A DNA stretch of 34,750 nt, taken from IMG/VR virus record IMGVR_UViG_2875703104_000001; one strand, written 5' to 3'. This document shows positions 6,551-31,236 of the stretch, piece after piece. Position 1 is the first letter of the stretch, and each line of letters starts with the position of its first letter. Position numbers and translations under genes: made by a program. The notes beneath the pieces were generated by a model. That model was not told the origin of the DNA and did no database searches. It saw nothing but the letters and a program-made list of their open reading frames with translations. Source of the stretch: a virus (lineage: Duplodnaviria > Heunggongvirae > Uroviricota > Caudoviricetes).

Positions 6551-7741
6551 TTAATTGCTGTTAACCGAGGTGACCAGATTTGCCAGGTATTTATCAGTAA
6601 TACGCTGGCGCAGGGTCAGGTTTTCAAGAGGAGGCACCGGGGTATAGTCGTAGTCGATATACAGTTTTCCGGCCTTGAGGGTTTCCGCATCGTTGGATTC
6701 TTCACTGAACCAGCAGGTCGCATCCACGATATAGCCGTTTGTTTTCAGCTCACGGAATTTGGCATTGATGCCGTCAACGATGTCGCGAATCAGCGTTGCG
6801 GTGATGGGCTTGTCCACCGCCCACATGTGCGCCTCAGCCATCGTGTCGGCCAGCACCTGCGCGGTGCGGGTGTAGTTTTCAAAGAGGAACAGCGGGTCAT
6901 CAGAGCAGGTACGGTTACCCCAGAACCGGAAACCGTCACGGCGAATCAGCGTTGTGACGCCTGACTCGTTAAGCAGGTCAGCATCGGTGCCGGACTCCTG
7001 CAAATCCCAGAATACAGATGCGCTGATGCCGGTAACACCGTTCACCCCGACATTGGACAGCGTTTTATGCCAGCCCTGCTCCTGGTCGATTTTAGCGCGC
7101 AGACCCAGCGCACGGGCGGTGGCATACGCGGTGGCGGTGGTACTGGTGACCGTATCCCATGCGAGGAAATCCGGCCAGATGACCATCAGCTCACGCTGGC
7201 TGAAATTCTGGCGGTAGGCTTTCACCTCGGAAATGGTCTTACAGCCCCATGCGCTGATATATCCGAAAGCGCGCAGCTTCTGACAGACTGATGCCAGTGC
7301 AACAGCCACCTCTTTGGTATCCAGCCCCGGCACACCAAGAATACGCGGTTTAACACCGGTTACCGACTCTGCCGCCAGCAGGGCTTTCAGTCCGGTATAC
7401 TGACCATTTTCGTCGGTGGTGCCGATGATATTGGAAACGGTCTGCGCGAGCTTCGTTTCTTCGTCATCGCCGGTGCCGTCTTCCACGCGCACGACAACGG
7501 TGACCGGTTTTGACTGGTCAGCGATGGCCTGCAACGATGCCGCCAGCGTGCCTTTTTTACCGGCCTTTGCAATTGCACTCTGCACATTGGTAATCAGCAC
7601 CGGTTTATTGAGGGGGAAGGTTTCCGCATCCGCATCGCTGGCCGTGCAGACCATGCCGACAATGGCAGTGGATACGGTGGAAATGACGCGGGTGCCGTCG
7701 TTAATCTCCAGCACCTGCACGCCGTGATGATAGTCACTCAT
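6551..7741 (-). CDS. FI: Contractile tail sheath protein gpFI (396 aa)
   Basis: Length and position match P2 FI; first gene of the FI-FII-E-T-U-D operon. Confidence 0.9.
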   Translation of the reverse strand: MSDYHHGVQVLEINDGTRVISTVSTAIVGMVCTASDADAETFPLNKPVLITNVQSAIAKAGKKGTLAASLQAIADQSKPVTVVVRVEDGTGDDEETKLAQTVSNIIGTTDENGQYTGLKALLAAESVTGVKPRILGVPGLDTKEVAVALASVCQKLRAFGYISAWGCKTISEVKAYRQNFSQRELMVIWPDFLAWDTVTSTTATAYATARALGLRAKIDQEQGWHKTLSNVGVNGVTGISASVFWDLQESGTDADLLNESGVTTLIRRDGFRFWGNRTCSDDPLFLFENYTRTAQVLADTMAEAHMWAVDKPITATLIRDIVDGINAKFRELKTNGYIVDATCWFSEESNDAETLKAGKLYIDYDYTPVPPLENLTLRQRITDKYLANLVTSVNSN

Positions 7742-8222
7742 CCGTTTAACTCCGTGGTTAATGGGTGAGTGGTATTTTCAGTTGTACCCGAGATGTCAGA
7801 CTATTTGTCCCGGTTGGCTAATCGACAGCACAACCACCGGTAAAGAAAAGGCGGGCAATTCGCTCGCCTGTCCTGATTTGTACTCACTTATTTCCCGACT
7901 GACAATTTACATAGCCAAAACGCTATCAAATCTGACAGTCTGCTTTGAGCGAGAAGCAGGCCTTACACTGTAATCAGCATAGAATAGGATGCAGAATCGC
8001 TAAACAAATAGATGTCTGTCAGAGTAGTGGCTTTTAGTGGAAATCTATAGTTGCTATAGCTCAGATAATTAAGTGCCGTCTCTGTCCGCAACTCTAGTCA
8101 GAGTTTATTGCACAGGGGAAATAAATAAGTGCATGTGAATCATTGTCACGAAACAGTAAATATTCGTCATGGGTCATCATATCACTATTTATATGTGTCA
8201 GAGTTGATACCCACCACTGAAA

Positions 8223-9269
8223 TCACTTTCCAAACTTATTAAATTGTTCAGCAATGAAATCAATATACTCATTACCTTGGCCGTTATGCCTGAATTTTTG
8301 CTGCCCTTCGAAATCTAAATTAGGTGAAAAATGAATTATTTGGTTATCTTCATACAGTTTTAAAGGAGAATAAAATGACAATGATTTATCATTCAATAAT
8401 TGACGCACTCCTGTTATAGCACTACCAATCAAAATATCACATAATTGAACTGCCGGGCTTAGTTTTGAATCAACTTGGTGAACATGCTCAAGCTTTAATG
8501 GGAATTTAATACTGGCGATTTCAGACATCTTAAACTCGGCTGGCGTCTGACATTTGATAAGCATCGAAAGATATTCATTGTATTGTAAAAGATTTTTAGA
8601 ACGATCATGCTCAATGCTATACGGTCCCTCTGACATTAATTCAGTGCGTGATATTAGTGCTTGAAGAATAACAAATGCTGCATCAGTAGAAATTTTTGGA
8701 TTAGTTATTGCCGTAATACAATCTGGATGCTCTAAAGCTAGTGGCCCCAGCACTTCCGGTAATAGACGCCAATTCACGGCCCTAACGTTCGCAATAAGGT
8801 TATTTACTGCTGTGTGCGTTTTCTCATGCATCGCATTTTGAAAAGATATTAGGATATTATCAAAATCTCTACCAAAGTAGCTTTGGCAGACATAGTAAGC
8901 CATTGATGCCATAGAAACGTTTCCACCATTTTCGTATAGATTTATCCCATGGTCATAGTAAAAAGGCTCTACCGCATACTCAATAAACATTTGAATTAGA
9001 ATCAAACGTTTATCGGCAACACAAGTAACACATGGAAAATTGGCAAGTAGTTCCTGTTGCAAAGTAAAAATTGGTTTTTGATAACTATCTCGCTTTTTAA
9101 GAGAGCTAAATTTCAATTCAGGGGCTTTGTGTTTAGGAAAATGTTGTCTGATAAGATGAAGAGCATCGTCATGACTAATCTTTACAGCGCTGGCCCCTTG
9201 CCAAGGTTGTGACTTTTGAAGAAGATCTCGCCCAGTGTAACCAGACTCATCAATTGAAAATATACTCAT
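8223..9269 (-). CDS. Cargo protein, DUF3800-like (348 aa), function unknown; candidate defence or moron gene
   Basis: N-terminus MSIFSIDESGYTG resembles the DUF3800 signature (hydrophobic-x-IDESG) and a C-terminal VQLCDILIGSAI resembles the DUF3800 QxADxxA-type motif. Gene is markedly AT-rich and sits at the P2 Z/fun position between FI and G. Confidence 0.6.
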   Translation of the reverse strand: MSIFSIDESGYTGRDLLQKSQPWQGASAVKISHDDALHLIRQHFPKHKAPELKFSSLKKRDSYQKPIFTLQQELLANFPCVTCVADKRLILIQMFIEYAVEPFYYDHGINLYENGGNVSMASMAYYVCQSYFGRDFDNILISFQNAMHEKTHTAVNNLIANVRAVNWRLLPEVLGPLALEHPDCITAITNPKISTDAAFVILQALISRTELMSEGPYSIEHDRSKNLLQYNEYLSMLIKCQTPAEFKMSEIASIKFPLKLEHVHQVDSKLSPAVQLCDILIGSAITGVRQLLNDKSLSFYSPLKLYEDNQIIHFSPNLDFEGQQKFRHNGQGNEYIDFIAEQFNKFGK

Positions 9270-9367
9270 TTATTCTGTGTCCATAGCTGTTGTTTCACCC
9301 AAAATACCTTTTTGGATAGTATTGCGCTATAGCCTTTAACCCTATTAATTGAGATCCATCGATGCAA

Positions 9368-9397
9368 GCAACGTCCGCTCATGGCACAGAGCGGACG
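9368..9397 (+). repeat. 30-bp hairpin-forming element, copy A (GCAACGTCCGCTCATGGCACAGAGCGGACG)
   Basis: Internal perfect 9-bp inverted repeat CGTCCGCTC/GAGCGGACG; about 87% identical to copy B at 11114..11143 in the same orientation. Confidence 0.7.
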
Positions 9398-9414
9398 ATA
9401 TCACTGAGCTGAAG

Positions 9415-9438
9415 GTCCGCTGAGAGCGAGGAGCGGAC
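9415..9438 (+). repeat. Second, shorter hairpin with the same GTCCGCT/AGCGGAC arms
   Basis: GTCCGCT-gagagcgagg-AGCGGAC, read directly, 18 bp downstream of copy A. Confidence 0.6.
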
Positions 9439-9548
9439 GTAGGGAATTGGTCCTTTCCCCCAACGATAACGTGTGTTAATCAGCCGAGAGTGGGTTATGA
9501 AACGCGGTGAATAGTTATGTTCCCAGTATCGCCATATTCCAGCCACTT

Positions 9549-10934
9549 TCAACGCATGCTTTTTGCGGTCTTATCTTGCTCCCAATGTGTGACACCTTCG
9601 ACCCCACGCGTCGAGTCAGATGTAAGCATCAATGGCTGTCTAAGGAAGAGCCCCATCAAATCCGGGACACGGGCAAAGTCTTGAACAGTCTCAGCCCACT
9701 CATAGTTGTCCTCTAATGGGTAATAATTAACGGCATGCAGGAAAGCACCCAACACGGTTGTTTTAGAGGCATCGTAGGCCGAGATATGCTCCATGTTTTT
9801 ATCCCTACGTAGTTCTTCAATATCTATGCCTTCGCAAGTCTCATACCAAATATGCACCACGCCAGCACGATCAGGGGGAATCTGCATGACTCCATCATTG
9901 AGCAAGCTCTTGAAATGCTTGGATCTGAGGCCAAGAGAAATCTCATGATCGCAGCACCACTGAGCTCCAACGCACTTTGCAACATCCTCTACAAAAATGT
10001 TGAGAATATCGTTATTGGTGCCAGGACGAATAACTCTCTGAGCGATAGTCGAGATACTTCGTTTCTCATTGCTATCTAGATCCCCAAATACCAGCAATTC
10101 ATGCTGTGGGCTATTGGCTCTGACTGAAAATTTTCTGTAGTGACGTCTGAGACCTAATTTGTCGATGGCTCGTATTCCCACACTGATTGAACCTTCATTA
10201 GCTTTTCCCGTCCCCCCTTTAATGGCTAGATTCACCGCTTTAATAACGTCTGCCGGAGTCACACTGGCGACCTGCTCATGGAAAATTATATCGACAATGT
10301 TCCATGGTGCGACTTTGAGCATATGTTGGCTCAATTGATGCCAGATGTTGGCCCAGGCTTGCTCTTCTGTCTTTGAGTACTTGGTTTGCTTATCCGACCT
10401 TTTGCACTCGACGTAGAACTCCAGATCACCTAACTTGACGAGCATATCCGGTGATTTTTTGGTCTTTCCATCGGGCCAAACAATGCTGCTTTCTGGGATG
10501 AAGGCAACCTCATAGCCGTTCTTTAGGTAGAACGATGCCGTCAGCAGCTCAAAAATTTGAGTTTCTGGTTTATTGTTATTTGCTAGCATTTTGTCCAGAA
10601 CATCATCGACGTATGGGACTTTGCGAAGCTGGTCTGCAACAGCTCCGATGGCCATAGCATAGGGGTAGATACGTCTGCTGCTGTAAGTAGCATCACTATA
10701 TGGAAAATCATGAGACAGATACGACGCCAGAATGTACCAGTCGATGTCATCTTCTGCTGGTATGAAGAGCTGGGGCTCTATCGGCAGATTGATGTTAAAC
10801 TTAGCCTCCTTCTCTCTTATGCGCTTGAAATATGCAGCTTTGCGAGCAGCCCAGGCCTCAGTTCCAAGCCTATCCACAAGCAACTGATAAAAAGCTTTTG
10901 TTCTTAAACGCTCAACACTACTGACACTATCCAT
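9549..10934 (-). CDS. Cargo protein of unknown function (461 aa) with a possible PD-(D/E)xK nuclease-like motif
   Basis: AT-rich ORF with no recognisable P2 counterpart. The segment SPDMLVKLGDLEFYVECK has PD...E-x-K spacing compatible with a restriction-endonuclease-like core; this is weak, motif-only evidence. Confidence 0.55.
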   Translation of the reverse strand: MDSVSSVERLRTKAFYQLLVDRLGTEAWAARKAAYFKRIREKEAKFNINLPIEPQLFIPAEDDIDWYILASYLSHDFPYSDATYSSRRIYPYAMAIGAVADQLRKVPYVDDVLDKMLANNNKPETQIFELLTASFYLKNGYEVAFIPESSIVWPDGKTKKSPDMLVKLGDLEFYVECKRSDKQTKYSKTEEQAWANIWHQLSQHMLKVAPWNIVDIIFHEQVASVTPADVIKAVNLAIKGGTGKANEGSISVGIRAIDKLGLRRHYRKFSVRANSPQHELLVFGDLDSNEKRSISTIAQRVIRPGTNNDILNIFVEDVAKCVGAQWCCDHEISLGLRSKHFKSLLNDGVMQIPPDRAGVVHIWYETCEGIDIEELRRDKNMEHISAYDASKTTVLGAFLHAVNYYPLEDNYEWAETVQDFARVPDLMGLFLRQPLMLTSDSTRGVEGVTHWEQDKTAKSMR

Positions 10935-11113
10935 TGCGGTCTCTCTTGGTTGTTGTATAGAGTCTTTAGCGATATATGTGATTTCAACTTATTGGAGGTA
11001 TTATCCTTCAGAAATCAAAGTTTGCTACCACAAAGAAATAGAAACTCTTTATTGCATCCTGTGTAAGTATCTATCCAAGCGGACCATTAGTTTTTTTAGA
11101 TATCTGACGTCCC

Positions 11114-11143
11114 GCAACGTCCGCTTCTGGCACATAGCGGACT
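11114..11143 (+). repeat. 30-bp hairpin-forming element, copy B (GCAACGTCCGCTTCTGGCACATAGCGGACT)
   Basis: 26/30 identical to copy A; the two copies bracket the 461-aa gene. Confidence 0.7.
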
Positions 11144-11206
11144 GTCAGATTAGGCTTTACTCTGTGCCATAGATATGTAAGCTCACACCAGAGATCATAC
11201 AACTTA

Positions 11207-11731
11207 TTACGGCATTTCCGGCCATTCGGGATTTGCAGGATCCACACGACTGACCAGAACGCTGTAGCGTTCCCATGCTTCCAGTCGGCCGCGTTCCTCA
11301 TCTGTTGCCATATTCAGCCTGACAGCGCGTTCCAGTGGCTGAATGATAGTTTCAGCTTCGGAAAGCAAAGCTGCCTTCTGTAATTCCGCCAGTTGCTCCT
11401 GTTCATCTGCCGTATAAATCCGCTTAATCACAGCACCATCCTTAAACATCCATTTACCTGAGTCATCAGCACGTCGGTTGGAGGTAATATCAGGAACCTC
11501 GACAACGCTGAAACCTTCAGGGTTAAGCGTTGAAGCATCTCTGGTGATGGCGACAATAATATTATTCTCGTCGTAAACAATTTTTATTGTGTCTGGCTGA
11601 AAATTACTTACTTCCTCATACCAGTTTTTTCCGTCTTCGGACCATAACCAGATAACATCAAAATTCTTTGTTAGCTGATATTGTTCTTTTGTTTTTGGAT
11701 TACCTGACTTAATGTTTTCTAAATGCTGCAT
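11207..11731 (-). CDS. G: Tail fibre assembly protein gpG (174 aa)
   Basis: C-terminal region ...[39 protein letters not shown] is the conserved Tfa/gpG-type tail fibre assembly motif; located immediately downstream of H. Confidence 0.85.
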
Positions 11732-11734
11732 AAT

Positions 11735-14544
11735 TTACACCTGCGCAACGTTATACCATGTGCCATTGATGTATTTTTGTATTGGTCTGAATACTGCTGG
11801 GTCATCACCATCGACTTCACCGACAATACCAAGCCCCGTGATTACATGGCCTGATTTTTCATACATCACGCCTTTTTGCATGGTCTGAACAACACGTGTG
11901 CCAAGTCTGACATCTCTCACATAGCGGGAATCAAAGTTACCGTAATCCGAGGGATTAACACTCCCCGTAATATTTATGGTTTTATTACTTTGAATACTTC
12001 CCGAGACAAAGCGCATAACATGGACGCTATTAGCATAAACATCCAGATTACCATCACCATTTTGTTTAAAGCCCGTGTCATTATCACCCAAAACAATCGA
12101 ATTACCGCCAAGAGCACTGGATGTTCCTATACCCAGAGCACCATTCAATTGACCACCAGATAACGGCAGGGCACCGACATCTCCCGCTGTAGGTTTTCGC
12201 GTTGTGGTATAAAACTCAGACCAGTCAGCCTCGAATCCGTAACCGTCACGAGCAGAACGATAAAAAATACCGCCGTTCTTATAATTAACGCGGAACTGGG
12301 CGGCGGGACAACTTCCTTCACCGATATTAAAATGAAGAATTAACGTTGATGCACCACCAATAGTTGCGTTATAGGCTCCGCTACTCCAGTTCCATCCAAC
12401 GGCTTTATCATTCGCAACGGTGTCTCCTGTTTTTCCTGAAGCAAATGCACCAATATTTTTCGGCGTCAGGTTAATATCTGATGTTCCATCAAACGAAACG
12501 TTATTAATTTTATTCCTGAAGCAAATGCACCAATATTTTTCGGCGTCAGGTTAATATCTGATGTTCCATCAAACGAAACGTTATTAATTTTACGGGCTGT
12601 TTTCAGCTTTGTTGCTGTCGCCGCATTGCCGGACAGTTCACCAGAAAGGCCAGCACTGAATGTCTGTTTCGCGCCCCATGTATGGGCTTCGTCAATGATT
12701 GGTACTCGTCTTGTTGTGATCGTGCGGCTTCCCGGATTTCCTGAAATACGCACCATAAAAAAGCGGTAGTTGGCTTTACTTACAGTGCTGCGCCATACAT
12801 GCATTGAGCGCCCCGAACCAGAATCATCACTCGGACCGACTGAGATGTTTATCAGGTTGCCATCAATGACGCCCCAGTCCATACCGTCGGGAATATTGGT
12901 CATGTTATCCAGCCGAACGGTTATCAGACTGCCCGGCACAAAATTGTATGTCTGCCAGTCCAGGCTGGTGAGTTTTGCCACTGCGCCACCGATACCCAAC
13001 TCTAACGGCAAAGAGTTTGAGTTATAAATCTGTCGCCACTCCCCCCACGCGTTAAATGAGCCACCAAGAAACACTCGCTCATATAAACGGTCTTTTGTAG
13101 CTGCGCTGGTTCCTGTGGTCGTGTAACGTTGCAAAACATAGACACCATCCTTGCGCCTGATGACTTCCAGAAAACCAGACTGCCCCTGGATTGGGGTGTG
13201 GGTCGCTTTGCCTGTCACACTGTAAATACCCGGAGACATCAAATCATCCAGGTCATCCTCATAGAAGGTACTACTGGTCTGATAACCAATTTGGATCCAG
13301 TCTTCCCACTGTGGATTTTCTGCATCCCATTTGGCTGTCAGGCCGCGAATATACATAGTCCCGTTACGGGTTGTATAACGCTGCGTGCGTCCATATAGCC
13401 CACCTTCGAAAATTTCCAGAATGCCCTGCGCGTCTCCTCCCTGCTCAGGGTAATGTCGTTCAAAAGAAGCTATTGCTGAACTGCTGTTTCTCCATAGACC
13501 TAAATGTTCTGCGCCACCGAGAGAGTTAAGGTCAATGGTCGTACTTAGAGCACGCGTTACAGCCTGAACATGGCGCCATGCTCCCCATGGTCCATCATTA
13601 CCATTCCATGTTCCAATGAGTTTGCGGGTATACAAATTTCCGTCACGTGTGGTATAGCGTTGCGTGCCTGCAAAATTGCCGCCAGCAAAAACCTCAAGCA
13701 CACCGACAGCATTATCTTCCGGGAAGTTTTTCTCCAGTGTTGCGTTGGTGGATGTTGCTTTAGACCAGATACCTGAATAAGCCTTAACAGGACCAAACGT
13801 ATTCAGATCAGCATTAAGCGGCATTTCGCCATTGTTTTTCATAAACGTCAGGCTGGTAACGCCAACATTGTCCAGAAAAGCGCCCTTATCTGGAATATCG
13901 CCACCGTTCTGGTCTTTCTGCAGACGTTTCTCAGCATTGTCATAGGCTGCTTTTACTGCCTTTGGCGTTGCCGCCAGCTTTTCACTGGTGCTGTTTGTTG
14001 CACTGCTTAACTGAGTAAAACCTTTTTCTGTCAGCGTGGCGTCAGGATGGCGGCGGGACTGCTCATGCTCTGCGATTTTGTCATCGACGTAATCCTGCGT
14101 CGCCATCACTGTGCTGGCATCAATAGTCAGCTCAACAGACGCCACGTTACTGATAATAATAACCATGCGGCAGGTCTGCGCACGTCCGGAGCCTTCAGCC
14201 AGTTCTGGTTTATAGCTTTCTGCCATGTTGGATACCGCAATCAGTGTTCCGGCATCGTCATACAGACCAAGCTCACGCATCCAGAAGCCGCCCACTTCGG
14301 GCGGTACAACCAGTTCAGCCACGATATAGTTTTTATTCTTATTATCCACGCTGACTTTATTCAGAGCGTGACGCCAGACCTCATGCACCAGTTTCGTCTG
14401 ACCGGCATCCGGCACCGGCAATTTGCCATTACCGTCACCCACGGCCATTGCAGACAGGTTTACTTTTTTCCCGCCGGGGACAGTGGCGGCAGCCAGCTTT
14501 GCGGCTCCGGCAGTAGTGATAACGGTTTTAAATTTCGTGCTCAT
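11735..14544 (-). pseudogene. H: Tail fibre gene H, frame-disrupted by an 80-bp tandem duplication (N-terminal ORF 12466..14544; C-terminal open frame 11735..12465)
   Basis: N-terminus MSTKFKTVITTAGAAKLAAATVPGG... matches P2 gpH. The ORF stops 47 nt into the first repeat copy with an aberrant ...GIKLITFRLMEHQILT tail. The other frame is open from 12465 to 11735 and encodes the expected continuation (...KNIGAFASGKTGDTVANDKAVGWNWSSGAYNA...). Deleting one 80-bp copy gives a single 909-codon ORF. Confidence 0.85.
12433..12592. repeat. Perfect 80-bp tandem direct duplication (12433..12512 = 12513..12592) inside gene H
   Basis: Read directly: both copies are TTCCTGAAGCAAATGCACCAATATTTTTCGGCGTCAGGTTAATATCTGATGTTCCATCAAACGAAACGTTATTAATTTTA. 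80 is not a multiple of 3. Confidence 0.95.
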
Positions 14545-25189: not shown

Positions 25190-26223
25190 TGAGCAAGAAA
25201 AAAGGGAAAACACCGCGACCAGCGGCAAAAACAATGACCGCCAGCGCCCCGAAAATGGAGGCATTCACCTTTGGTGAGCCGGTGCCGGTACTCGACCGCC
25301 GTGACATTCTGGATTACGTCGAGTGCATCAGTAACGGCAGATGGTATGAGCCACCGGTCAGCTTTACCGGTCTGGCAAAAAGCCTGCGTGCTGCCGTACA
25401 TCACAGCTCGCCAATTTACGTCAAACGCAATATTCTGGCCTCGACATTTATCCCGCACCCGTGGCTTTCCCAGCAGGATTTCAGCCGTTTTGTGCTGGAT
25501 TTTCTGGTGTTCGGTAATGCGTTTCTGGAAAAGCGTTACAGCACCACCGGTAAGGTCATCAGACTGGAAACCTCACCGGCCAAATATACCCGTCGTGGCG
25601 TGGAGGAGGATGTTTACTGGTGGGTGCCGTCCTTCAACGAGCCGACAGCCTTCGCGCCCGGCTCCGTGTTTCACCTGCTGGAGCCGGATATTAATCAGGA
25701 GCTGTACGGCCTGCCGGAATATCTCAGCGCCCTTAACTCTGCCTGGCTGAATGAATCGGCCACGCTGTTCCGCCGCAAGTATTACGAAAACGGCGCACAT
25801 GCCGGATACATCATGTACGTCACCGATGCCGTGCAGGATCGCAACGATATCGAAATGCTTCGCGAAAACATGGTTAAGTCGAAAGGCCGCAATAACTTTA
25901 AAAATCTGTTTCTCTATGCCCCTCAGGGGAAAGCCGACGGCATTAAAATTATCCCCCTCAGTGAAGTGGCAACGAAGGACGATTTTTTTAATATCAAAAA
26001 ATCCAGCGCCGCTGACCTGCTGGACGCGCACCGCATCCCCTTTCAGTTGATGGGCGGCAAGCCGGAGAACGTCGGGTCGCTGGGTGATATTGAGAAAGTG
26101 GCAAAGGTCTTTGTCCGCAATGAGCTTATCCCGTTACAGGACAGGATTCGGGAAATAAACGGCTGGCTCGGTCAGGAGGTCATCCGCTTTAAAAACTACT
26201 CACTGGACACTGACAACGGCTGA
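25189..26223 (+). CDS. Q: Portal protein gpQ (344 aa)
   Basis: Length and synteny match P2 gpQ; start overlaps the P stop. Confidence 0.9.
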   Translation: MSKKKGKTPRPAAKTMTASAPKMEAFTFGEPVPVLDRRDILDYVECISNGRWYEPPVSFTGLAKSLRAAVHHSSPIYVKRNILASTFIPHPWLSQQDFSRFVLDFLVFGNAFLEKRYSTTGKVIRLETSPAKYTRRGVEEDVYWWVPSFNEPTAFAPGSVFHLLEPDINQELYGLPEYLSALNSAWLNESATLFRRKYYENGAHAGYIMYVTDAVQDRNDIEMLRENMVKSKGRNNFKNLFLYAPQGKADGIKIIPLSEVATKDDFFNIKKSSAADLLDAHRIPFQLMGGKPENVGSLGDIEKVAKVFVRNELIPLQDRIREINGWLGQEVIRFKNYSLDTDNG

Positions 26224-26228
26224 ACATC

Positions 26229-26250
26229 GCCGCCTGCGGGCGGCTTTTTT
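26229..26250 (+). terminator. Rho-independent terminator after Q (GCCGCC-tgcg-GGCGGC followed by TTTTTT)
   Basis: Read directly; 6 nt after the Q stop codon. Confidence 0.75.
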
Positions 26251-26392
26251 ACACCCCGCCATCACGCCCTCACACGCTCATCACCGCACAAAACATCCCG
26301 CAGACACACCAACGCCCCGGCGAACAATCTAAACGCCGTCACGACGCGCTCAGACGCTGAAAAAATAAAATCAGCACCACCGCCAGCGCGCA

Positions 26393-26411
26393 GTGCTTTC
26401 CCCGCCTCGCC
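26393..26411. other. cos: cos site: 19-nt cohesive-end sequence of P2 type
   Basis: GTGCTTTCCCCGCCTCGCC is the reverse complement of the P2 cohesive end GGCGAGGCGGGGAAAGCAC as I recall it; located about 170 bp past Q, as in P2. Confidence 0.75.
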
Positions 26412-26531
26412 CGCCCGCTTCGTGGGACGATTTTAATGCAGTTGCCCGCATTAGCTGAATCCGCGCCAGAACAGACATTATGGATATGTCAATACGAACT
26501 TATTGACGTGCAAAATCATGCAATCAAGCGC

Positions 26532-26557
26532 AAAAAAAACCGCCTTCAAAGAGGCGG
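26532..26557 (-). terminator. Rho-independent terminator downstream of the kinase-HIRAN gene (minus strand)
   Basis: Plus strand AAAAAAAA-CCGCCT-tcaaag-AGGCGG; on the minus strand this is a hairpin followed by U8, about 20 nt after the stop at 26577. Confidence 0.7.
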
Positions 26558-26576
26558 TTTATGTTATCCCATTGGA

Positions 26577-28220
26577 TTAAGATCTACATTCAACTAAAAG
26601 GTACACTAATGGACGTTCTGGCGTCCCATTCTTCTTTGCAACAAAAGCAGATATTTTGTGTTTTGCTATTTTTTGCTTGAGTTTTTTACATAACACTTTG
26701 TTTATATAACCAAGTTTCCCGCTCTCATGAACAACAGCTATAGCATGTGGATCAACCGGGTTATCCTCTTCAGGAACAAGCTTGACCAAATCACCGACCA
26801 TTACTTTCGACAAATCAAGCCCTTCCTGATAACGAGTTCCTGCCACTTCAAAAAGAAGCTCACCTTCACTATTAAGAATTTCTGGATCTGGCACCAAACA
26901 AAAACCATCGCCAGGTGATTTTGCTCCTGTATATCCTAACAGCGCAAAATCAGAGCCTTCAAATGGATGGGGGAGCAAATGTTGAGCCAGATACTCAGCA
27001 AAGTCTTTTCTTTTCCGTGGTGGTAAACGCCGAACAAACGGGTCAAGCACGTTGTTCGTATGTTCTTCACTTTTCAGACTAAATGCGGGATGTCCTGCAA
27101 ACCCTTTCTCTTGGGCTTTAGCATAATCTTCTGACTGAAAATGGTATGTGAAGACGTAGTTATCCCCTTGCTGACGATCAATCTGACCAACAACATAACG
27201 AGTACCGCCTGTGGGTGGCTGCCATGTAAGAAGCAACCGAGTAGGCTCCATTATTCTGTTTATAGTACGCATATTTAGAATCAGTGATAACCTTAGGTAT
27301 CTACGCCTCAATAAACGAATCGTCCAATCCGCTCGTTCCCTAGTGAACGGCACATCGGAGCTAATTTCGCAAAGTGAATCTATCTTGTCGACCAGTTCCT
27401 GAAAATCAAATTCAAGTCTCCGGGCCAAGTACGCTTTTGACTGCTCATCAAGAGCCAAATCCTGTATAGAAGAAATATGACCTAATCGTTCATGCGTGTC
27501 TGCCCGATTCTTCCGCAAATGATGACAACCACGCTGTATGTATTCATCTACATTTTGATGGTTCCATCCTCTGATCCTCTCTACATACCTTTCATGCCCC
27601 AAACTAGTACCATTATCGAAATATGGTGCGAGATATCCCTTCACTTTAGGTGGCGTTATGCCTGGTGCAGATTCAGGTACAAAAACAAAACCCCAATTCT
27701 CTTGGTGTCTATCACTATTACCGATGAGCGCATCAAAAAGCAGCATATCGTAAAGCCATTGGATCCAGTCTGGAGAGATCAGGCCGCGGATACTAAAAGC
27801 CCTACAAATTAAGCGTAGATCAACAAGGTTATGGTGTCTTCCGGAAGAGTCATCAAAATCCGATATCAACACATGAAAAAAATCAGACGCATGAACAAAT
27901 AACTGGCTACTTTGATCGTAAAACCACTCAAGCAAAGCTCCATATTCGTATTCACCGTTCTCCATCATTCTTCGCGCTGGCAATGCTTTAGGAACAGGAA
28001 CGCCCATAACATCTCCAACTATATAAGCAACGGTTTCCATCCAGTACTGATCGGGATAAGCATCTCTTGAGAGTTTAAAAAGATAAGGCCATTCCGGTTT
28101 TATCCCCTCAGGAGCATCATTCGGTGACCAAAGCATTTTTTTATCCCTCGCTCCTCGAGGAAAAATGCCATGCTCATCATCTTTACGCCAACTAGTTACA
28201 TCTATTAAATTGATATCCAT
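26577..28220 (-). CDS. HipA-like Ser/Thr kinase domain protein with C-terminal HIRAN-like domain (547 aa); candidate defence or toxin effector
   Basis: LFDALIGNSDRHQENWGFVF fits the HipA-family catalytic loop (GNxDxHxxN) and LAPYFDNGTSLG the downstream HipA motif. C-terminus LFEVAGTRYQEG...LVPEEDNPVDPHAIAVVHESGKLGYINK fits the HIRAN signature. Gene is AT-rich and sits between cos and A. Confidence 0.65.
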   Translation of the reverse strand: MDINLIDVTSWRKDDEHGIFPRGARDKKMLWSPNDAPEGIKPEWPYLFKLSRDAYPDQYWMETVAYIVGDVMGVPVPKALPARRMMENGEYEYGALLEWFYDQSSQLFVHASDFFHVLISDFDDSSGRHHNLVDLRLICRAFSIRGLISPDWIQWLYDMLLFDALIGNSDRHQENWGFVFVPESAPGITPPKVKGYLAPYFDNGTSLGHERYVERIRGWNHQNVDEYIQRGCHHLRKNRADTHERLGHISSIQDLALDEQSKAYLARRLEFDFQELVDKIDSLCEISSDVPFTRERADWTIRLLRRRYLRLSLILNMRTINRIMEPTRLLLTWQPPTGGTRYVVGQIDRQQGDNYVFTYHFQSEDYAKAQEKGFAGHPAFSLKSEEHTNNVLDPFVRRLPPRKRKDFAEYLAQHLLPHPFEGSDFALLGYTGAKSPGDGFCLVPDPEILNSEGELLFEVAGTRYQEGLDLSKVMVGDLVKLVPEEDNPVDPHAIAVVHESGKLGYINKVLCKKLKQKIAKHKISAFVAKKNGTPERPLVYLLVECRS

Positions 28221-28229
28221 ATCTTACGG

Positions 28230-28781
28230 TTACCCAGCTAATGCACGGAAAGCAGCACTAACATAAGCTACCTGAAACTTTGCATCTCGAAGCGCATGAT
28301 GCGCATCAGTAACATTAATGGAAAAATTTGCCCTTACATCAATATTCTTAAGGCTTTTAGCTAGTTCAACGATGGTACGCACGTCTCGATCATTTCGAAA
28401 ACGCCATGGGATATTTTGCGCATGTTTACGGTAAACCGCTGCCAATATAGCGTTATCAAAGCTTGCCCCATTCCCCCAAACTTGTACGTCATCGTTACTA
28501 CGACTTCGTACAAATAGAGAAAATTCTTGTAAGGCTTCATGTAAGTCAACAGCAGACGGGTCATTAAAAACCGCCCTTGCAGAATCGCTTTGTATCATCC
28601 ACCACTGTAAAGTTTTTGGGTCTACAAAACTATTTTCCAATGCAGATGATAGGGTTATAACTCTATAAAACTCATCCCCACACTTGCCAGTCAGAGGCTC
28701 AAAGAACACAGCGCCGATTGAAATCAAAGGAGCATCCATTGACACACCTAATGTTTCTATATCGAGCATTAAATTATTCAT
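28230..28781 (-). CDS. DEDDh-family (DnaQ/RNase T-like) 3'-5' exonuclease (183 aa)
   Basis: Exo I motif LDIETLG (D-x-E), central FDNAIL aspartate and C-terminal AHHALRDA (H-x4-D). GGAGG ribosome-binding site 4 nt before the ATG; 9-nt gap to the kinase gene suggests one operon. Confidence 0.7.
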   Translation of the reverse strand: MNNLMLDIETLGVSMDAPLISIGAVFFEPLTGKCGDEFYRVITLSSALENSFVDPKTLQWWMIQSDSARAVFNDPSAVDLHEALQEFSLFVRSRSNDDVQVWGNGASFDNAILAAVYRKHAQNIPWRFRNDRDVRTIVELAKSLKNIDVRANFSINVTDAHHALRDAKFQVAYVSAAFRALAG

Positions 28782-28921
28782 TTAACCTCCACCCCAGACA
28801 TAGCTCAGGGAAACGTAACCTATTGAAATAACGAATCAAGTATTTGTCACATTCTATACTAAAACATTCGAATTCCAAAACTTCAGCTTTTGCAACCCCT
28901 TACAAGTCAATTGATCCATAA

Positions 28922-28941
28922 TACTGTATACATACACAGTA
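28922..28941. promoter_or_regulatory. LexA (SOS) box TACTGTATACATACACAGTA
   Basis: Matches the E. coli LexA consensus TACTG(TA)5CAGTA with a perfect CTGT-N8-ACAG core. It lies 19 bp past the A stop and about 140 bp upstream of the exonuclease start. Confidence 0.7.
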
Positions 28942-28959
28942 CTACATTTGAAAAACAAA

Positions 28960-31236
28960 TCAAGGGAAATCATTAAAACCCGGCCAATCACAACAAGGCG
29001 GATAAACAAATTTTTTCATGTCATAAATAACTTCTGCCCCACGAGCCAGCGCCTCAAGCTCCCATCTCTGAGGCCTGATACCGTTCTGAGCAAGGTCAAC
29101 GCGGATACGGGTGATTTGCAATCGTTCAGACCGGGTCAGTCTGGCCGATGGTGCAATTTCATGCGGTTTTAACGGGCTTCCGTTTCTTTGCTGACGGTTT
29201 GGTCTTCTCAGGCCGTATTTTAATGCACCTCTGAGCGCCCTCACGACCTCCGGGTCATTCCATTCGATAACACCGTCATCAACCAGATTAAGCACTGCTG
29301 CGGCGTGCTCAGAAGGTGTGGGAGCCAGTAACGAAGTATCACCACCGGTGAGCTTTCCACAGTTATTGACAGGACTCCGAGGCGCGGCGATGCCGCTTTT
29401 TAAAGTCAAAGGCTCAACGACCGGAACTTTCGGCACAATGCGCCAGTCCGTCGTTCTGGTGATATGAATATGACGCGCGCCGAGATGCGGCGCGTAAATG
29501 CCGACCACTCTCTCGACTTCTTCCTCGTACTCGTTAACGTCATCCGACGGACTACGGGCGACCCTGACAGTCTGACAATCGCGCGGGACATTTGCCCCGC
29601 CCTGCGCGCTGATATACAGCGCAAAATCGCCACTGTCTGCGGCAGCGCGTGCAGCCTCCACGCGTTCGTCAAACTCATCAGCAATACTGACGCCGCGAGG
29701 CAATTTACGTAGTTCACGGTAAGCCCCCATTGTCGGCAGTCCAACCGTTTTAAATTGCGGGATGCGCCACGTTGACGCCCATGCGGTAACAGCCGCGGCA
29801 GTATCTTTAAGCGGCTTACCGGTATCGTTATCGAGCTGACCATCCAGTGCATAGCCGTCGATATTTTTTGAAATGTATTTCGCGATATATCCCGCAGCAC
29901 CGCCCCGGTTAAGATGCTTTGCCTGAAAACGGTTTCGCGCGGCTCCTCTTTCGTCACCATCCTCTTTGAGCGCATAGCGACGCATGATTTCGATAATCTG
30001 GTTACGCTGGCGTGGATTACAAAAAAGCATCATATGCCAGTGCGGCGTTCCGTCGTGGTGTGGCTCGACGACACGCAAACCGTAGACCTGTAAATCATTA
30101 TCCTTGAATGCCGTACGCATCAGGCTCCAGATACGGCAGAGATAACGCTGCGCATCCTTTGGATTAAATGCCTCATCATTCCAGCCGTGATTAAGCTGGA
30201 CGGTTTTACTTTCGCCTTTTCCGACCTGACGTGTCGGATGATACTTTGACGGCGCGGTCATCGTGATAAACATCCCCACATCACCCTCTGCGGCGGCGTA
30301 ACGCTCAATTCCGGCGATGGTGTTCATCAGCTCCATCCGGCGAATTTCAGGATTAGAAATACTGCCCATCACCTTACTGATAAGGTCGATGCGCTCGCCG
30401 GTTTCCCTGTTTTCAAGGTCACACGATTTAAGAAATTCCAGATTTGCCTGGCGGCGCGCACGCACATCACGAATGGCATGTTTACTGGCATAAGGAGAAC
30501 GGTCTTTATTGACCTCCCCGACAGCAATCAGTAACGCCTCATGCCAGCGCATACGCTGGCCTTTAAGCTGATGAGTCCACCACTCATCGTTAAACAGACG
30601 GGCAATGGCAGAATATGCCTGCCTCGTGGTCATCTGTCCTTTACGGTATTTTTTCCAGTAGAGCGGGGAAATATTGAAAGCACGTGCAGCGCCAGCAACA
30701 TGACCATACAGGTGAGCCTGCGCCTCATCCGTAAACAGCGATTCTTTTTCGCCATGCGCATCCACCCAGGCATCGCAGAGTTCCTCATACATCATGAAAA
30801 GCTGCGATGAGATTCGGGCGGCAAACTTTTTCAGCTCCTTGTCATTCATCCCCGGCAGGCGCGCATACTGGTCGCGCTCTGCCAGAAACAGCAACGACGC
30901 GTCGGTGTTCATTTCATGGCGCTGATTCACGCGCTCAATGCGCGGCCATAAACGACGCTGAAAAGTGGATGTGAGGAAATAAAACCCGTGCACCGGGCTT
31001 TTATTGCGCCGGATGTAGTCATAGCGTGAAGTAAACAGCGAACGCAAAAAGTAAGGCAGGCGGTTAATCGTGGATAAAACACCTTGCACCTGACGCATCT
31101 CGTCACGTGTAAGGGGTCTTTCGCGCCCGACAGCCTCGCGTGGCGCGTTCCATGCATAAGCACCGGTAAACGCCTTACCGGTGCCTGCGGCAAATGCTGA
31201 CGGAGGGACAAAACGCCCGGAGGCTTTAACGGCCAT
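28960..31236 (-). CDS. A: Replication initiation protein gpA (rolling-circle HUH endonuclease), about 758 aa
   Basis: Contains the HUH motif (GTPHWHMMLF) and the P2 gpA-like N-terminus MAVKASGRFVPP. The ORF-track start at 31278 is 14 codons further upstream; start choice is uncertain. Confidence 0.88.
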   Translation of the reverse strand: MAVKASGRFVPPSAFAAGTGKAFTGAYAWNAPREAVGRERPLTRDEMRQVQGVLSTINRLPYFLRSLFTSRYDYIRRNKSPVHGFYFLTSTFQRRLWPRIERVNQRHEMNTDASLLFLAERDQYARLPGMNDKELKKFAARISSQLFMMYEELCDAWVDAHGEKESLFTDEAQAHLYGHVAGAARAFNISPLYWKKYRKGQMTTRQAYSAIARLFNDEWWTHQLKGQRMRWHEALLIAVGEVNKDRSPYASKHAIRDVRARRQANLEFLKSCDLENRETGERIDLISKVMGSISNPEIRRMELMNTIAGIERYAAAEGDVGMFITMTAPSKYHPTRQVGKGESKTVQLNHGWNDEAFNPKDAQRYLCRIWSLMRTAFKDNDLQVYGLRVVEPHHDGTPHWHMMLFCNPRQRNQIIEIMRRYALKEDGDERGAARNRFQAKHLNRGGAAGYIAKYISKNIDGYALDGQLDNDTGKPLKDTAAAVTAWASTWRIPQFKTVGLPTMGAYRELRKLPRGVSIADEFDERVEAARAAADSGDFALYISAQGGANVPRDCQTVRVARSPSDDVNEYEEEVERVVGIYAPHLGARHIHITRTTDWRIVPKVPVVEPLTLKSGIAAPRSPVNNCGKLTGGDTSLLAPTPSEHAAAVLNLVDDGVIEWNDPEVVRALRGALKYGLRRPNRQQRNGSPLKPHEIAPSARLTRSERLQITRIRVDLAQNGIRPQRWELEALARGAEVIYDMKKFVYPPCCDWPGFNDFP

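Follow-up and report, generated by a model that had tools for sequence, protein, structure and literature searches.

A candidate anti-phage nuclease with a predicted PD-(D/E)xK core at the Z/fun hotspot of a P2-like prophage

Main

A 461-aa protein encoded by a P2-like prophage carries a predicted PD-(D/E)xK nuclease core and is probably a single-protein nuclease effector directed against phages or other mobile elements, carried as exchangeable cargo in the Z/fun hotspot of P2. Its gene lies at 9549..10934 on the minus strand of the window, by which we mean the whole stretch of 34,750 nucleotides that was analysed (IMG/VR virus record IMGVR_UViG_2875703104_000001) and which is, judged by its sequence, a P2-like (Peduovirus) prophage. 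The protein family is uncharacterised, is of a very common kind and has already been flagged in silico by DefensePredictor; as a mobile cargo gene in a known anti-phage hotspot, it plausibly encodes a defence nuclease. Were the phenotype to be confirmed, the anti-phage repertoire would gain one more single-gene nuclease family, one that spans Enterobacteriaceae, Pseudomonas, Aeromonas, Stenotrophomonas and Collimonas genomes as well as conjugative plasmids. The gene also accounts for a position in the second P2 hotspot that had lacked annotation.

In the mechanism that we favour, the stand-alone, horizontally mobile gene would be expressed from the lysogen, and the non-catalytic regions of its product would sense an infection cue or a feature of foreign nucleic acid. 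These regions would gate the nuclease, which would then cut DNA. We infer that the protein has nuclease activity, that DNA is its substrate, that the flanking regions gate it and that it confers defence; the gating model is speculative.

A conserved nuclease core

The first-pass annotation had called a 461-aa frame at 9549-10934, and the call holds: the ORF list gives an ATG-initiated frame on the minus strand, RefSeq annotates the same frame in an identical prophage, and homologues can be aligned from residue 1 to the end. In Escherichia coli lysogens the protein is WP_001774109.1, annotated as a ‘hypothetical protein’. The PD-N12-E-x-K spacing that had been pointed out in this protein is really there. 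Residues 161–178 (10401..10454, minus strand) read SPDMLVKLGDLEFYVECK, in which D163 of the catalytic motif SPD163-N12-E176-C-K178 is followed by 12 residues and then by E176-C-K178. When the protein was shuffled, the exact pattern PD-x12-E-x-K arose in 0.4% of shuffles and the looser pattern [PSTG]D-x8-30-[DE]xK in 67%; because the loose pattern arises so often, the motif alone is weak evidence for a nuclease.

Structure prediction, proposed earlier as a check on the fold, returned a canonical core. An AlphaFold2 model of the protein, built with 44 sequences (pLDDT 87.2, pTM 0.87), contains at residues ~120–220 (10275..10577, minus strand) an alpha-beta-beta-beta-alpha-beta unit formed by a helix (residues 123–138), three strands (142–145, 164–168 and 171–179), a second helix (188–208) and a last strand (212–218), with a local pLDDT of 89–96. 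In the model, E129 lies on the first helix, D163 enters strand 2, and E176 and K178 lie on strand 3; the core as modelled is of canonical PD-(D/E)xK topology.

The earlier annotation had also asked whether the motif residues are conserved in homologues, and they are. Conservation was read from an alignment of 105 relatives with 18–54% identity, drawn from 507 found by profile search. The upstream acidic residue E129 (codon at 10548-10550, minus strand) is present in all 105 sequences (100%), D163 in 102 (97%), with E in the remaining 3, and E176 and K178 in 104 each (99%). E190 (104 of 105), C177 (100) and Y186 (97) are conserved as well, and the nuclease core is the best-conserved part of the protein.

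No conserved family had been recognised by eye, and curated resources name none either. The best Pfam result is a sub-threshold match to an AHJR-like restriction endonuclease at residues 133–204 (E 0.0066); for the Hjc/AHJR-like families (PF01870, PF18743) the score is 16.4 bits against a cut-off of 26.1. NCBIfam and PADLOC gave no match to the protein, with no family of PADLOC-DB 2.0 (which includes PD-T7-1, PD-T7-5, Shedu and Hachiman) reached at E<=1, and the PHROG that contains it carries no assigned function. Across the alignment, 21 of the 105 members give weak matches to PD-(D/E)xK Pfam families, and unrelated families yield only single scattered matches.

Profile–profile comparison, for which an HHpred search had been suggested, gave a divided answer. 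With hhalign, the family profile aligned insignificantly to a single Mrr-type sequence, and against an alignment of 31 Mrr sequences the E, D and ExK residues fell in register at an E value of 0.65, also insignificant, so assignment to a named family is not secured at the sequence level. The HHpred searches reported with DefensePredictor, on the other hand, reach about 95% probability for PD-T7-1 and PD-T7-5, as detailed below. Querying the PDB by sequence, first with the protein itself and then with the 105-sequence profile, returned nothing meaningful. Foldseek comparison of the whole model with the PDB and BFVD gave local Hjc-like matches and no global match; structural similarity to solved PD-(D/E)xK members is present, and most of the structural matches are DNA nucleases. 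Together, the predicted fold and the conservation of the catalytic residues back the core that had been put forward as possible, and support the central ~100 residues as a PD-(D/E)xK (restriction-endonuclease-like, Mrr/Hjc-type) core with intact catalytic residues in what is a predicted nuclease.

Beyond the core, the protein departs from known members of the fold. The matched Hjc chains are about 113–126 residues long, whereas the present protein has 461 aa and several parts and is found on mobile elements. It likewise differs from Shedu SduA, Hachiman HamA, NucC, Can2/Card1 and the PD-(D/E)xK systems validated by DefensePredictor: none of their PADLOC models matches it, it is without CARF, DUF4263 and DUF1837 regions, it appears to need no helicase or cyclase partner, and its overall architecture finds no match in the PDB or BFVD.

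Flanking regions and a second invariant site

Around the core, the model places an N-terminal helical region and a C-terminal alpha/beta region, a scaffold that seems to be specific to the family; Foldseek found no counterpart of this arrangement in either structure collection. The C-terminal region holds a second invariant polar cluster at residues 351–415 (9690..9884, minus strand), comprising Q351, H361, E365, R376, H400 and E415. Q351 and H361 occur in 105 of 105 relatives, E415 in 100 and E365 in 96, and R376 and H400 are nearly invariant across the same range of 18–54% identity. The cluster lies outside the nuclease core and matches no known motif or fold. When modelled alone, the C-terminal 247 residues gave a poor model (pLDDT 70, pTM 0.46), which suggests that this part packs on the rest of the protein.

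The unassigned flanks and the second invariant site are the likeliest place for something new, and the flanking regions could reveal a new way to switch on a restriction-like nuclease. It is conceivable, if doubtful, that the protein represents a new self-contained class of immune sensor-effector with two sites, a PD-(D/E)xK centre and the C-terminal polar cluster, the latter serving as a separate catalytic site or as a ligand- or metal-sensing site that gates the nuclease.

Position in the P2 fun(Z) locus

Positions 7700-11300 of the window align with Escherichia phage 899 and Yersinia phage GMG73 at 100% identity, and the ends of this segment match the P2 genes FI (tail sheath; 6551-7741, minus strand) and G (tail-fibre assembly; 11207-11731, minus strand). 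G is upstream of the 461-aa gene and FI is downstream, beyond the gene of a 348-aa DUF3800 protein (8223..9269, minus strand; Pfam DUF3800 E 1.4e-5, with a weak PADLOC PDC-M04A match). By sequence comparison, the G-to-FI segment corresponds to the fun(Z) locus of P2, and the 461-aa gene is placed between G and FI, inside the inverted repeats of the locus, where hotspot cargo lies. Vassallo et al. (PMC9519451) describe Z/fun as a second defence-enriched hotspot of P2-like phages; the analysis of Rousset et al. was limited to the other P2 hotspot, at old/tin. P2 fun, which occupies the same locus as the 461-aa gene, blocks T5. The 461-aa gene resembles Fun(Z) of P2 in its G–FI location, in having the same bounding inverted repeats and in being accessory cargo of lower GC content, but the proteins are unrelated, the P2 gene has the opposite orientation and two cassettes stand in tandem here.

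The gene had been described as AT-rich. Its GC content is indeed below that of the window (46.2% against 51.5%), although only modestly so; FI has 56% and the DUF3800 gene 36%. The non-coding region upstream of the gene (10935..11113, minus strand) travels with it, at ~90–99% nucleotide identity to copies in Buttiauxella, Pantoea, E. coli islands and a Klebsiella plasmid. This region contains a GAGAG ribosome-binding site and, 66 nt upstream of the start codon, a promoter-like TAGCAA-N16-GATAAT (11000-11027, minus strand), which falls below the threshold of a consensus scan, is kept in the Buttiauxella and Pantoea cassette copies and may be the promoter of the gene.

Hairpin repeats delimit a 1.73-kb cassette

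The repeats that had been said to bracket the gene are real. GTCCGCT-N10-AGCGGAC occurs in three exact copies (9373-9396, 9415-9438 and 11119-11142), and at <=2 mismatches there are four matches where 0.13 would be expected. The repeat that we call A' (GCAAC-GTCCGCT-N10-AGCGGAC-TGTCAGATT; 11114..11151) forms the G-proximal boundary of both the hotspot and the 461-aa cassette. Repeat B (9404..9440), inverted relative to A' and 76% complementary to it over 37 nt, is the distal boundary of that cassette; repeat A (9368..9396), 90% identical to A', is the proximal boundary of the DUF3800 cassette; and repeat C (7929..7964), inverted relative to A' and 81% complementary over 36 nt, is the FI-proximal boundary of the hotspot. 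The order on the plus strand is C, DUF3800 gene, A, B, 461-aa gene, A', which we read as two cassettes in tandem, with the extra back-to-back A/B pair marking the junction of stacked cargo.

A' is located just after G in P2 and four other P2-like phages, C is kept upstream of FI in P2, vB_YpM_46, 12474III, P2DC1 and Wphi, and the pair bounds the hotspot in these phages regardless of its cargo. Among 5426 E. coli genomes, A' is present in 2061, close to the number with P2-like flanks. Since the same repeats surround unrelated cargo, they belong to the locus and not to the 461-aa gene. The hairpin repeats are already known rather than new: PMC8987985 credits Nilsson et al. 2004 with reporting inverted repeats that flank fun and allow exchange between phage and bacteria.

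When the window was compared with five other contexts (E. coli NCTC9038, E. coli A30, Buttiauxella, Pantoea and a Klebsiella IncFIB plasmid; 90–99% identity), the DNA match broke off inside the repeats in every case, at 9375-9424 towards FI and at 11134-11154 towards G, which delimits a mobile unit of ~1.73 kb that includes ~180 bp of conserved upstream sequence. Flanking repeats of this type were not found beside the Pseudomonas, Aeromonas and Enterobacter homologues. The cassette is a clear case of the Z/fun inverted repeats delimiting swappable cargo, and the presence of the 1.73-kb unit in chromosomal islands and on a plasmid bears on how P2 hotspots exchange defence genes.

The spacer between the two genes measures 279 bp by ORF coordinates (9270-9548), as had been stated. 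It had also been called structured, which is true in part: it folds moderately better than shuffled sequences (z = -2.16; 6 of 200 shuffles fold as well), but it has no Rfam match, and its RNA structure consists of the two adjacent hairpin repeats pairing together. A riboswitch or small RNA in the spacer was rejected on these same grounds. We also set aside intrinsic terminators (the hairpins have no T-run and are not called by a consensus scan), a genome-wide REP-like element (the copy number tracks P2-like prophages) and integron attC-like sites. The attC core site is GTTRRRY, and the flanks, inspected by eye, do not fit it.

Homologues and genomic neighbourhoods

The protein had been labelled an orphan, which is wrong. 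It has 132 close homologues (53–98% identity) in Klebsiella, Enterobacter, Pantoea, Aeromonas, Pseudomonas, Stutzerimonas, Stenotrophomonas, Comamonas and other genera, and a profile search of 1.8 billion cluster representatives found the 507 relatives mentioned above at E<=1e-3, mostly over their full length. Distant members are mostly metagenomic and their names are uninformative; no characterisation of the protein came up when the literature was searched by accession, by PHROG id and for DUF3800. The family is carried on 60 plasmids, 50 of them conjugative, and among 50,697 phage records it is found only in two copies of this same phage. In two lysogens of the same prophage the gene has been inactivated, by a 1-nt deletion in one and in the other by an IS3-family insertion near codon 250 (window ~10181-10193), which fits a dispensable and possibly costly accessory gene.

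Many neighbours of the homologues are defence genes. In P. aeruginosa, Lamassu-like genes and AbiTii stand beside integrases, and the Stenotrophomonas context has a restriction-modification methylase and specificity subunit. Three Pseudomonas and Stutzerimonas contexts have, directly upstream, an ABC-3C/PDC-M68B protein, an LmuB-like SMC ATPase and Hachiman HamA/HamB. On the Aeromonas plasmid pAsa4 the neighbours are an AAA ATPase and a UvrD helicase, a pair that we read as Gabija-like, and a distant member is accompanied by SIR2 and Piwi, and by ArdA. E. coli A30 carries the gene in a tRNA-Phe island, adjoining an Mrr-type endonuclease and a GIY-YIG protein, and E. coli NCTC9038 carries it in an IS-rich island. 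In Buttiauxella the gene sits among aldo/keto reductase genes, not in a defence island.

Published predictions bear on the same gene. We take PD-T7-5, from its name, to belong to the same Vassallo set as PD-T7-1. In Vassallo et al. 2022 (PMC9519451), PD-T7-1 is a validated E. coli defence system with homologues in prophages and defence islands. DefensePredictor (PMC13092281) lists WP_000378754.1 and WP_258314113.1, alleles with 99.6% DNA identity to the window gene, each as a ‘Predicted novel defense gene’ (log-odds 7.6 and 11.8), and gives for them HHpred probabilities of 94.9 and 95.4% to PD-T7-1 and PD-T7-5. This similarity is limited to 13% of the protein, presumably the nuclease core, and the PADLOC models of the two systems do not match the protein at E<=1. 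Neither the accession nor the sequence of the 461-aa protein is present in the tested-construct and hit tables of DefensePredictor.

Alternative explanations

Enzymes with PD-(D/E)xK folds also take part in repair, recombination, transposition and RNA cleavage, and the alternatives to a defence effector differ chiefly in substrate and trigger. Against the defence reading itself stand the lack of a curated profile at threshold, the insignificant Mrr comparison and the fact that some contexts are not defence islands. The alternative that carries most weight, although we consider it unlikely, is a solitary type IV (modification-dependent) restriction endonuclease of the Mrr kind, with flanks that read modified bases such as the hmC and glucosyl-hmC of T-even DNA. 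Such an enzyme would cut modified DNA directly and so confer direct immunity, rather than sensing infection and then committing suicide. Yet no family member reaches the Pfam threshold for Mrr_cat (PF04471; best E 0.0025 among the 105, not significant), the window protein itself has no Mrr_cat match, profile–profile comparison with the Mrr family by hhalign is insignificant, and no modified-base reader (Mrr_N, SRA or YTH-like) was found by Pfam or fold search, Pfam giving no domain at all outside the core. The layout differs as well: the nuclease domain is central here but C-terminal in Mrr, the Mrr_N winged helix is absent, and neither Mrr nor AF1548 (PDB 1y88) has anything equivalent to the extra 120 residues on the N-terminal side and 240 on the C-terminal side. 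An RNA-directed toxin that uses the fold as a tRNase or RNase, as Burkholderia CdiA-CT does, and halts translation once activated is improbable; the structural matches are mostly to DNA nucleases, and no adjacent immunity or antitoxin gene is conserved across loci.

The DUF3800 neighbour raises a different possibility, in which the 461-aa protein would work only together with the DUF3800 protein. In the window, as in 36 E. coli genomes, the two genes lie side by side in the same orientation; in complete E. coli genomes this DUF3800 allele is seen only beside the 461-aa gene (36 of 36); and the DefensePredictor table (PMC13092281) lists DUF3800 together with retron type VII systems. We nevertheless hold such dependence to be highly improbable. 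At 19 other loci with a homologue of the 461-aa protein, including relatives of 90–93% identity, no DUF3800 homologue lies within 8 kb and no neighbour family is common across loci. The 461-aa gene is present in 42 complete E. coli genomes against 36 for the DUF3800 gene, six genomes having the nuclease gene alone (two of which, NCTC9038 and A30, were inspected); two boundary repeats lie between the genes, whose GC content differs by 10 points; and both lysogens with a disrupted nuclease gene keep the DUF3800 gene intact. The independence that had been proposed for the 461-aa gene is borne out by these loci and counts, and the DUF3800 gene, on this reading of the sequences, forms a cassette of its own and does not partner the nuclease. 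Least probable in our judgement, and very unlikely, is a selfish-element enzyme: a nuclease for homing or transposition that would recognise the hairpin inverted repeats and so mobilise its own cassette. In six contexts inverted hairpin repeats do form sharp boundaries of the cassette, and the Hjc-like structural similarity would suit this idea, branched or cruciform DNA being a natural substrate for such an enzyme. However, in all five of the other P2-like phages compared, these repeats enclose unrelated cargo (Fun(Z), a SMEK-domain protein, orf44 and others), and the Pseudomonas, Aeromonas and Enterobacter homologues stand without them. We therefore prefer a single-protein defence effector carried as cargo of the hotspot.

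Other features of the prophage

Elsewhere in the prophage, the tail-fibre gene H (minus strand) contains a perfect 80-bp tandem duplication at 12433-12592 that shifts its frame and splits it into a 692-aa ORF (12466-14544) and a 137-aa C-terminal ORF (11735-12148). In phage 899 and other lysogens the 80-bp unit is present once and H is an intact 909-aa gene. Unless the duplication arose during assembly of the sequence, this copy of the prophage probably has a tail-fibre defect. A second low-GC cargo block spans ~26000-29500 and, from its position, is probably at the old/tin hotspot. It includes two ORFs on the minus strand: one (26577-28220) encodes a 547-aa fusion protein whose N-terminal half matches the PADLOC candidate PDC-M03A and whose C-terminal half matches the candidate PDC-M03B, and the adjoining one (28230-28781) encodes a 183-aa DEDDh-type exonuclease.
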